Origin: Candidatus Saccharimonadota bacterium
GTDB taxonomy: Bacteria > Patescibacteriota > Saccharimonadia > Saccharimonadales > UBA4665
Assembly (NCBI GenBank): GCA_963716945.1
Contig: OY970322.1
Location: 120,001 to 152,000 of the forward strand
Direction of reading: 5' to 3'
Length of the DNA stretch: 32,000 nt
The position numbers and the translations under genes were made by a program. The notes beneath the pieces were generated by a model. That model searched no databases. It was not told where the DNA came from and was given only the letters and a program-made list of their open reading frames with translations. Below are positions 17,746 to 17,897 of the stretch, one piece after another. The number at the start of each line of letters is the position of its first letter. Within the stretch, counting starts at the first letter, position 1.

Positions 17746-17897
17746 GTAACTTCGCTCACAAGGAGTTTGAACCTTGGGCCTGGACAGCCTTAATCCAGTA
17801 GTAGCACCCAAACCTCCGCATTTAATGGGAGGCGTGGTTGTCCAAAAGCTACTACGCCACGTCTACCATTAGGTGCGGATTTTTGTACCTAAGTTAC
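17746..17897 (+). ncRNA. Structured ~150-nt 5' leader / unclassified RNA domain fused to the tRNA
   Basis: - P1: GTAACTT (17746-17752) pairs with AAGTTAC (17891-17897), directly abutting tRNA position 1.
- Hairpin CAAGG/CCTTG spans 17759-17776.
- Hairpin CTGGA/TCCAG spans 17780-17798.
- A long helix pairs 17816-17837 with 17857-17878: 13 bp plus 7 bp, separated by one A-T pair and one G/A mismatch.
- A 7-bp perfect pseudoknot joins linker TAGTAGC (17799-17805) to loop GCTACTA (17848-17854).

I recognised no known RNA family. Confidence 0.5.

Follow-up and report, generated by a model that had tools for sequence, protein, structure and literature searches.

A structured leader as a candidate attenuator of a tRNA-like RNA in an accessory RNA cassette of a Saccharimonadota bacterium

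What does a folded RNA leader of 152 nucleotides (nt) do directly in front of a gene resembling a tRNA? The question is raised by a 32,000-nt stretch of the genome of a Candidatus Saccharimonadota bacterium (assembly GCA_963716945.1, contig OY970322.1, positions 120,001 to 152,000), here called the window, in whose own numbering positions are given. The original prediction saw in the leader an undescribed cis-acting RNA, perhaps a processing signal, a riboswitch-like element or a ribozyme, attached to a bacterial tRNA. The reading preferred here, to which a probability of about 0.55 is given, is that the leader is an attenuator in a horizontally moving accessory RNA cassette, whose tRNA-like RNA is controlled by a small RNA. 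The premise that an odd leader precedes a normal tRNA does not hold: what is unusual is the tRNA-like RNA itself. The leader and the signals around it are the following.

17711 to 17739, + strand: sigma-70-type promoter TTGACA-17-GATAAT (11 of 12 consensus positions) for the transcript of leader, tRNA-like RNA and small gene
17746 to 17897, + strand: structured leader, 152 nt (hand check and minimum free energy fold)
17816 to 17885, + strand: long hairpin (17816 to 17878) with the U-tract AUUUUUG (17879 to 17885), terminator- or attenuator-like
17872 to 17891, + strand: alternative small hairpin AGGUGC-GGAUUUUU-GUACCU, read from the sequences

The pairings proposed at the outset were checked by hand against the sequence and lie where they had been placed. 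These are the terminal heptamers GTAACTT (17746 to 17752) and AAGTTAC (17891 to 17897); the hairpins CAAGG/CCTTG (17759 to 17776) and CTGGA/TCCAG (17780 to 17798); the long helix, with its lower part CCGCATTTAATGG (17816 to 17828) and CCATTAGGTGCGG (17866 to 17878) and its continuation GGCGTGG (17831 to 17837) with CCACGTC (17857 to 17863); the segments TAGTAGC (17799 to 17805) and GCTACTA (17848 to 17854) of a loop-linker pseudoknot; and the alternative pairing CCTCC/GGAGG (17813 to 17817 and 17828 to 17832). The second heptamer does abut position 1 of the tRNA, the Rfam tRNA beginning at 17898. The minimum free energy fold (RNAfold) of 17746 to 17897 recovers the terminal helix, both small hairpins and the long helix at -53.8 kcal/mol, against a mean of -38.4 kcal/mol (standard deviation 3.7) for dinucleotide shuffles (z = -4.15), and 0 of 200 shuffles were as stable. 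The leader is a real, strand-specific, structured RNA element; it has no family match in Rfam, even at E <= 10, and it belongs to a larger tRNA-linked non-coding RNA unit, as had been proposed.

A detail missed by the original prediction is that the long helix is preceded by CAAAC and directly followed by the U-tract. With these A/U flanks the helix has the form of an intrinsic terminator. In the small hairpin at 17872 to 17891 the U-tract lies in the loop, and formation of this hairpin competes with pairing at the base of the long one. A transcription start near G17746, predicted from the promoter alone, is plausible, and a promoter scan of 17000 to 19000 listed no + strand promoter between 17739 and 17898.

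Homologs were found by way of the protein of 39 amino acids (aa) encoded downstream, and then by way of a conserved DNA motif following the terminator, in metagenomes and in two viral contigs. The comparisons span six to nine loci. The tRNA-like RNA is present in eight and a complete leader in six, namely W (the window's own copy of the module), L012, L016, L020, L007 and L008. All six leaders are significantly structured (z from -2.7 to -5.3). Their sequences cannot be aligned between loci, the leader being the least conserved part of the module. One dominant hairpin of 22 to 45 pairs, unrelated in sequence from locus to locus, nevertheless lies just upstream of the tRNA-like RNA in 6/6 loci, so that the long hairpin is kept at an equivalent place. 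These hairpins are specific to the + strand, being 6 to 20 kcal/mol more stable than the fold of the - strand and containing 2 to 8 G-U pairs. In five of the six (W, L012, L020, L007 and L008) an A-tract precedes the hairpin and a run of 4 to 7 U follows it, which is the same design as that of the module's main terminator. The small hairpin holding the U-tract covaries (AGGUGC/GUACCU in W, GGUAUGG/CCAUACC in L012 and GGUGUGG/CCAUACC in L020). Promoters comparable to that of W were identified by eye 117 to 203 nt upstream of the tRNA-like RNA in L012, L016 and L020, and weaker candidates only in L007 and L008.

The product that lies behind this leader comprises the following.

17898 to 18018, + strand: serine-type class II tRNA-like RNA with a 7/5 cloverleaf (Rfam tRNA, 48.9 bits)
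17942 to 17990, + strand: hyper-extended variable arm, a hairpin of about 16 bp in the fold

This RNA is 121 nt long including an encoded CCA. The Rfam tRNA model (RF00005) matches 17898 to 18015 with 48.9 bits against a threshold of 29, and its homologs reach 39 to 53 bits. ARAGORN called no gene here because about 49 nt occupy the variable region; across the loci this region has 40 to 50 nt, about three times the normal class II length, and in W it bears the apical 13-mer GCUUCGUCAGCAU at 17962 to 17974. Judged from sequence only, the serine identity set is present (G1-C72, G2-C71, A3-U70, G73, C11-G24 and the long variable arm). The D stem has 3 bp, the acceptor stem 7 bp and the T stem 5 bp; an 8/4 or 9/3 division between acceptor and T stems is thus not found, and U8 is opposite C, so the acceptor stem cannot be extended. 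Compensatory changes were identified in 15 of the 25 cloverleaf pairs among eight homologs, including 5/5 pairs of the anticodon stem, and this covariation indicates that the cloverleaf is real. The anticodon loop of W is UUGUCAA (17930 to 17936), with the anticodon GUC (17932 to 17934) that reads Asp codons. The eight loci contain six anticodons, GUC, CCA, CCU, GAA (three loci), UAG and CUU, and none of them has a serine anticodon (NGA or GCU). The family retains U33 and has a purine at position 37 throughout. An antisense Rfam match was to Plastid-psbl-rps4, the family of the plastid psbI-rps4 3' untranslated region, whose consensus shares the T arm and 3' acceptor sequence, so that this part of the RNA is conventional. 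Neither ARAGORN nor Rfam calls a transfer-messenger RNA (tmRNA) at this position.

The tip of the variable arm leads to the second partner. The longest internal repeat of every module is a 13-mer found at this tip and again just past the terminator, in W at 17962 to 17974 and 18294 to 18306. The elements around the second copy are these.

18258 to 18292: bidirectional intrinsic terminator common to both convergent transcripts (an inverted repeat, kept in all modules)
18294 to 18306, - strand: small-RNA seed; the + strand reads GCTTCGTCAGCAT, as in the variable-arm tip, and the - strand RNA AUGCUGACGAAGC is complementary to it
18307 to 18322, - strand: small-RNA hairpin H3, UCGAAC-GAAA-GUUCGA with a GNRA tetraloop, read from - strand sequences
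18323 to 18380, - strand: 5' part of the small RNA, with hairpins H2 (18324 to 18345) and H1 (18343 to 18380)
18372 to 18400, - strand: proximal promoter-like element TTGACG-17-TATTGT (promoter scan), overlapping the 5' arm of H1
18466 to 18495, - strand: distal promoter TTGACA-18-TATTCT (promoter scan), conserved in L016 and L020

The 13-mer differs between the loci as follows.

W: GCTTCGTCAGCAT
L008: GCTTGAACAGCAT
L012: GCCTAGACAGCAT
L016: GCTTGATAGGCAT
L018: GCCTCTACAGCAT
L020: GCTTGATCGGCAT
L023: GCCTGTACAGCAT
L007: GCTTTCAGAGTA in the variable arm, GCTTTCAGAGCA in the post-terminator copy

Seed and variable-arm tip form 13 pairs with 99% of the cells paired over these eight loci and compensatory changes in 6/13. 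The observed covariation score was reached by 0 of 500 shuffles, and partner columns slid out of register pair in 24 to 37% of the cells. The single substitution within the 12-nt match of L007 (T vs C) yields a G-U pair. Both sequences change together in every locus examined, and on this covariation the pairing is taken to be real. Extra copies of the 13-mer at up to two mismatches were found in no locus.

The GNRA loop, the promoter, the covariation of H1 and H2 and the bidirectional terminator that closes the unit argue that the second copy acts on the - strand. The loop of H3 is GAAA in 9 of 12 sequences, GAGA in L007 and GUAA in L008 and L023, and is of the GNRA type on the - strand only. 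H1 shows compensatory and G-U changes, and H2 covaries by eye (e.g. AGCCG/CGGCU vs AGCUACA/UGUAGCU). The proximal promoter follows TTGACN-17-TATTNT in eight modules, with TTATTA as first hexamer in L024. The predicted small RNA would read, from 5' to 3', hairpins, GNRA hairpin, 13-nt seed and terminator, the seed being predicted as single-stranded between the GNRA hairpin and the terminator. Conserved promoter, terminator and covarying hairpins support its probable expression, and the distal promoter could yield a longer isoform containing all of H1.

Three observations on the small RNA stand apart. A tmRNA-like tag frame (23 aa in W) was rejected, AUG being present in only 3 of 9 copies. Suboptimal RNAduplex pairings of the small RNA with the + transcript were long artefactual duplexes, most of the top ones anchored at the seed, and disclosed no second conserved site. 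The best partial third copy of the 13-mer is 10 nt long (GCGCTTCGTC; - strand, 18581 to 18595), near the right edge of the cassette, with no equivalent in other modules.

That these elements form one accessory unit is seen by comparison with L004, the closest relative recovered, whose neighbouring 434-aa protein is 80% identical and which lacks the cassette.

17658 to 17710: left edge of the ~950-bp cassette (17658 to 18607), from BLASTN against L004

BLASTN aligns 17307 to 17657 at 86% and 18608 to 18671 at 97% identity, and L004 has about 16 nt (its positions 1821 to 1836) in place of window positions 17658 to 18607; the leader through 18607 is therefore an accessory cassette of ~950 bp. Its + strand order is promoter, leader, tRNA-like RNA, structured spacer, 39-aa gene and terminator, and its - strand contains the convergent small RNA (about 100 to 120 nt, predicted) ending at the same terminator. 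The window locus sits in a region of polysaccharide biosynthesis. Loci reached by synteny via the gene of the 434-aa neighbour either lack the module (L004) or have a different context (L005 and L006). The insertion itself presents neither a recombinase gene nor obvious terminal repeats.

Other modules are associated with mobile DNA. L007 and L020 have the module at the far end of an island of 3.5 to 6 kb, with 1.5 to 4 kb between it and the gene of a large serine recombinase; in L020 a GmrSD-type nuclease stands between the two. In both loci the 3' end of the recombinase gene (L007, 6651 to 8271; L020, 7260 to 8919) extends into a canonical tRNA gene that lies on the other strand. The module of L012 starts right after a tmRNA gene (1 to 82), and that of L016 lies downstream of 23S-5S rRNA genes (1 to 721). 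Two viral contigs, L014 (an element with a tyrosine integrase) and L015 (a phage with an endolysin), carry only the unit formed by terminator, 13-mer and GNRA hairpin, each with a 13-mer of its own (GCCTGATCAGCAT and GCCTGATTAGCAT). In L014 the integrase gene (6066 to 7316) ends about 450 bp from the unit (7763 to 7797); the unit is at 9755 to 9789 in L015 and at 985 to 1019 in L019. The sequences of L014 and L015 look like an attP site that copies the 3' end of the small-RNA gene, and L019, where foreign DNA is joined to the small-RNA gene, looks like an occupied junction. The 3' end of the small-RNA gene thus seems to be an integration site. The mobile context fits an addiction, immunity or defence role, without proving one.

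Wider searches returned little. The pattern of anticodon arm and T loop (GGTTGTCAACC-N30-60-GGTTCGAATCC) gave two chance matches in species-representative genomes, both upstream of ordinary short tRNA genes. In viral contigs neither this pattern nor a general tRNA-like pattern had a match, and the scan of these contigs for the post-terminator motif returned only L014 and L015. No match to the module was obtained by BLASTN among GenBank phages, no prior description of the arrangement was found in the literature, and Rfam has no family for it.

In the preferred reading, the long A- and U-flanked hairpin is most likely a leaky intrinsic terminator, that is, an attenuator limiting the tRNA-like RNA. 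Most transcripts would stop as a leader RNA of ~140 nt, and read-through alone would give the tRNA-like RNA and the small gene. In read-through transcripts of W the 5' end of the leader would pair with the 7 nt before tRNA position 1 and hinder RNase P. The small RNA would bind the tip of the variable arm and thereby control what becomes of the tRNA-like RNA, which would be kept sterically from the ribosome or exposed to a recruited nuclease. In engineered tRNAs, extra hairpins on the variable arm are reported to be tolerated (PMC7590224). Leader and small RNA would together keep a potentially harmful RNA in tight check, the suspected harm being that of a serine-accepting tRNA which reads Asp codons.

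Several points weigh against this proposal. The hairpin of L016 is not followed by a U-tract, which means that termination cannot be what the hairpin does in every locus. Compared with typical terminators the hairpins are also much longer and have much larger loops, and they would suit RNase III as substrates. The terminal helix is missing from L007 and L008. The comparison comprises six leaders with no column-by-column alignment, and covariation of the hairpin is argued from architecture, not from R-scape. H1 includes the -10 box of the proximal promoter, which makes the start site and 5' end of the small RNA uncertain: either transcription begins further up, from the distal promoter (18495 to 18466), or the RNA has two isoforms. 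The identical 13-mers on one strand might in principle be recombination cores instead of RNA partners. Finally, we infer from sequence where transcription starts and that it stops at the leader hairpin, as well as processing by RNase P, aminoacylation and the duplex between the two RNAs.

The alternative that comes closest, although unlikely, is that the long hairpin is mainly an RNase III processing stem in the style of rRNA operons or early phage transcripts, freeing a 5' domain and leaving a short leader for RNase P, with the U-tract incidental. Near-perfect duplexes of 22 to 45 pairs, a typical length for RNase III substrates, occur in all six loci including L016; however, five of the six hairpins have the A-tract/U-tract layout of a terminator, for which RNase III has no need. 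The two roles are not mutually exclusive and can coexist.

It is improbable that the leader is an independent gene for a trans-acting small RNA of about 140 nt, running from the promoter to the hairpin terminator, with the tRNA-like RNA made by incidental read-through. The unit from promoter to U-tract is indeed self-contained, and its 5' part is partly conserved between W and L012 (common UUGGGCCU.G.AC...CAAACC, by eye). However, no promoter between the long hairpin and the tRNA-like RNA was found by eye in any locus sequence, the leader has the lowest sequence conservation in the module, and no covarying partner for it was found elsewhere in the module.

Quite unlikely is also the possibility that the 13-mers are DNA recombination cores (attachment sites or the ends of an excisable 332-bp segment) and that there is no small-RNA regulator. 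Both copies are direct repeats on one strand, integrative elements use the unit of terminator, 13-mer and hairpin as an attP-like site, and L019 resembles an occupied junction. Against it, variable arm and unit have no identity outside the 13-mer, and the conserved - strand promoter, the GNRA loops restricted to the - strand and the covariation of H1 and H2 with G-U pairs argue for a - strand RNA. The substitution within the L007 match is a transition compatible with G-U pairing. The recombined products (tRNA 5' half joined to the hairpin) are seen in no locus, and integration in L019 occurred at the unit and not in the variable arm.

The model of the original prediction has little probability left. 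It makes the leader a closed riboswitch-like or ribozyme domain with a pseudoknot, stacked on the acceptor stem and able to change conformation. In its favour W has a perfect 7-bp terminal helix and alternative pairings (CCUCC/GGAGG and the U-tract hairpin), and its loop-linker complementarity of 7 to 8 bp recurs in L012 with one G-C to C-G flip, with different candidates of 7 to 8 bp in L020 and L007. The closed domain stood in part. Folding gives the terminal helix a high probability in W (7 bp) and L012 (8 bp), and also in L016, where its 7 bp end at position -3; in L020 it is weak, and L007 and L008 do not have it. The pseudoknot was not borne out. Its 7 bp in W are by themselves within chance expectation (p about 0.09), and a test of the longest loop-to-upstream complement against shuffled loops was not significant over the six loci (Fisher p = 0.12), with no candidate in L016 and L008. 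Nothing points to a ribozyme or ligand-sensing role: the comparison of leaders disclosed no conserved unpaired core of the kind expected for ligand pockets or catalytic sites, and Rfam has no match. The weakest explanation, by which this is a normal though long tRNA leader and its helices arose by chance from local composition, draws on the individual 5-bp helices and the pseudoknot being within chance expectation, and is already disfavoured by the shuffling result and by the recurrence of the architecture in six loci of unrelated sequence.

Candidates for a sensing device in the leader were dropped as well. Rfam gave no T-box match to the leader at E <= 10, nor to its homologs at E <= 1, and a T-box-like specifier was rejected, the anticodon-loop complement in leader or small RNA being at most 5 nt by eye. 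In the W leader AAGGAG-N8-TTG opens a frame of 32 codons (17759 to 17872, + strand) with one GAC codon, which runs through the 5' arm of the long hairpin. Attenuation by a leader peptide was rejected: the frames in other leaders are not conserved in sequence and the cognate codon is not consistently there. A 9-nt inverted match (ACCTAAGTT; 17887 to 17895 with 18562 to 18570) is within chance expectation.

Beyond attenuation, a tentative and on balance doubtful extension takes the cassette for a new type of toxin-antitoxin or immunity module made up of RNA only. The toxin would be a serine-charged tRNA misreading Asp codons or, in other copies, Trp, Arg, Phe, Leu or Lys codons. As first safeguard, the terminator-like leader and the helix masking the RNase P site would keep the tRNA-like RNA scarce; as second, the giant variable arm would present at its tip a programmable address of 13 nt, on which the convergent small RNA would dock. 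With an address that is different in every copy, each cassette would be private to its own small RNA. Integrating elements carry their own version of the small-RNA 3' end, and mistranslation might be triggered by loss of the cassette or by replacement of this 3' end by an integrating phage or element. On the small islands that recombinases carry in bacteria of the candidate phyla radiation (CPR), the cassette could then act in addiction, in blocking integration or in abortive infection.

The rest of the + strand transcript comprises two elements.

18019 to 18075, + strand: structured spacer between the tRNA-like RNA and the small gene
18090 to 18209, + strand: gene for a conserved basic small protein of 39 aa (MPKPNTRVRDSRTGQFVPRREA...), with homologs at 76 to 91% identity

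Downstream of the CCA end and ahead of the Shine-Dalgarno sequence, the spacer contains the helix GCAUGC (18036 to 18041)/GCAUGC (18061 to 18066), in which 6/6 pairs have changed on both sides and 94% of the cells are paired. A second helix is weaker (78% paired) and would make a probable H-type pseudoknot. This element might serve processing, stability or the control of translation.

The 39-aa gene is preceded by the Shine-Dalgarno-like AAGGGGG. The protein family comprises 352 cluster representatives at E <= 1e-3, with members of 36 to 160 aa, some of them carrying two copies of the motif RVRDSxTGxFVP...TTxTE. The protein has no match in Pfam, NCBIfam, PADLOC or PHROG and no solved relative in PDB, and no known defence or toxin-antitoxin model (PADLOC, Pfam, NCBIfam) matches it or the flanking genes. 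Its AlphaFold model (pLDDT, the predicted local distance difference test score, 84.8) has a beta-beta-alpha-like fold; Foldseek matches, including the Sda1 nuclease core, had E of about 1, and no conclusion was drawn from them. A homolog of high GC content, L013, has no tRNA-like RNA adjacent. Downstream of the cassette, 18669 to 20911 (+ strand) encodes two secreted proteins without family match, one of which (553 aa) contains at least four repeats of about 50 aa (PLFRPNGDLSFV.LNYYTGN.QVVTYS); these genes likewise adjoin the neighbour gene in L004.

Among known systems, allo-tRNAs are the nearest. They accept serine, have non-serine anticodons with GUC among the predominant ones, occur near toxin-antitoxin loci and mobile elements, and are defined by an 8/4 or 9/3 split of acceptor and T stems; some are toxic or translationally inactive (Mukai et al. 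2017, PMC5389517). The present RNAs share with them the serine-type body, long variable arm, G73, diverse non-serine anticodons and mobile-DNA setting, but are canonical 7/5 molecules in Saccharimonadales-like genomes, whereas allo-tRNAs lack the 40-50-nt variable arm, matched small RNA, terminator-like leader and linked small gene. With canonical tRNA-Ser are shared G1-C72/G2-C71/A3-U70, G73, the 3-bp D stem with C11-G24, the T arm and an encoded CCA; the differences are the missing serine anticodon, a variable region about three times as long, rejection by ARAGORN and an accessory gene absent from L004.

The leader resembles terminator leaders and attenuators (T-box, amino-acid operons) in being promoter-proximal, with a hairpin and U-tract before the product and alternative pairings. 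In contrast, its product is a tRNA-like RNA and not an mRNA, its stem of 22 to 45 pairs has a large loop, and no specifier, antiterminator or conserved leader peptide was identified.

In P1/P7 heteroimmunity, a change of seed alters specificity. The CI RNA of P4 and the C4 RNA of P1/P7 are short RNase P-processed antisense immunity RNAs of mobile elements (PMC5499578). These too are structured RNAs from a longer transcript, acting through a short complementary seed, but they are hairpin-like and without a T loop. Here there is a full cloverleaf with the pairing site in the variable arm, the complement is carried by a separate, convergently transcribed small RNA instead of lying within the operon itself, and Rfam gives no C4 match.

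The bsrG/SR4 and txpA/RatA loci of Bacillus subtilis are type I toxin-antitoxin loci with convergent antisense RNAs overlapping at the 3' end. The convergent small gene and small RNA, shared bidirectional terminator and mobile or prophage DNA are common to both arrangements; however, the 39-aa protein is no membrane peptide but basic and hydrophilic, and the covarying contact is about 330 nt upstream in the tRNA-like RNA, not only in a 3' overlap. As in tmRNA, a tRNA-like element, a pseudoknot and a short open reading frame follow each other on one transcript, except that here the anticodon arm is complete, the CCA is internal, and the reading frame comes with a Shine-Dalgarno sequence and an ATG of its own. 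Each known system shares a principle with the module and none shares its architecture; the system is rated as categorically new, with a function inferred from six to nine loci.

If the pairing is functional, this would be, to our knowledge, the first bacterial small RNA that targets the variable arm of a tRNA-like RNA through a copy-specific address, and a class II variable arm would be able to act as a docking platform. It would be a natural counterpart to engineered aptamer-tagged tRNAs (PMC7590224) and, next to allo-tRNAs, a second lineage of mobile-DNA tRNAs that combine a serine body with a non-serine anticodon. A second lineage sharpens the question of whether such RNAs serve deliberate mistranslation, toxicity or a use outside translation. 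In practical terms the module offers orthogonal RNA-RNA address pairs and a tRNA scaffold that accommodates a 50-nt insertion, and it belongs to a tRNA-like class that standard tRNA finders miss. The arrangement at the leader, a tRNA-like gene behind a terminator-like attenuator, is rarely seen, and the whole points to a regulatory RNA biology of Saccharimonadales-like CPR bacteria.

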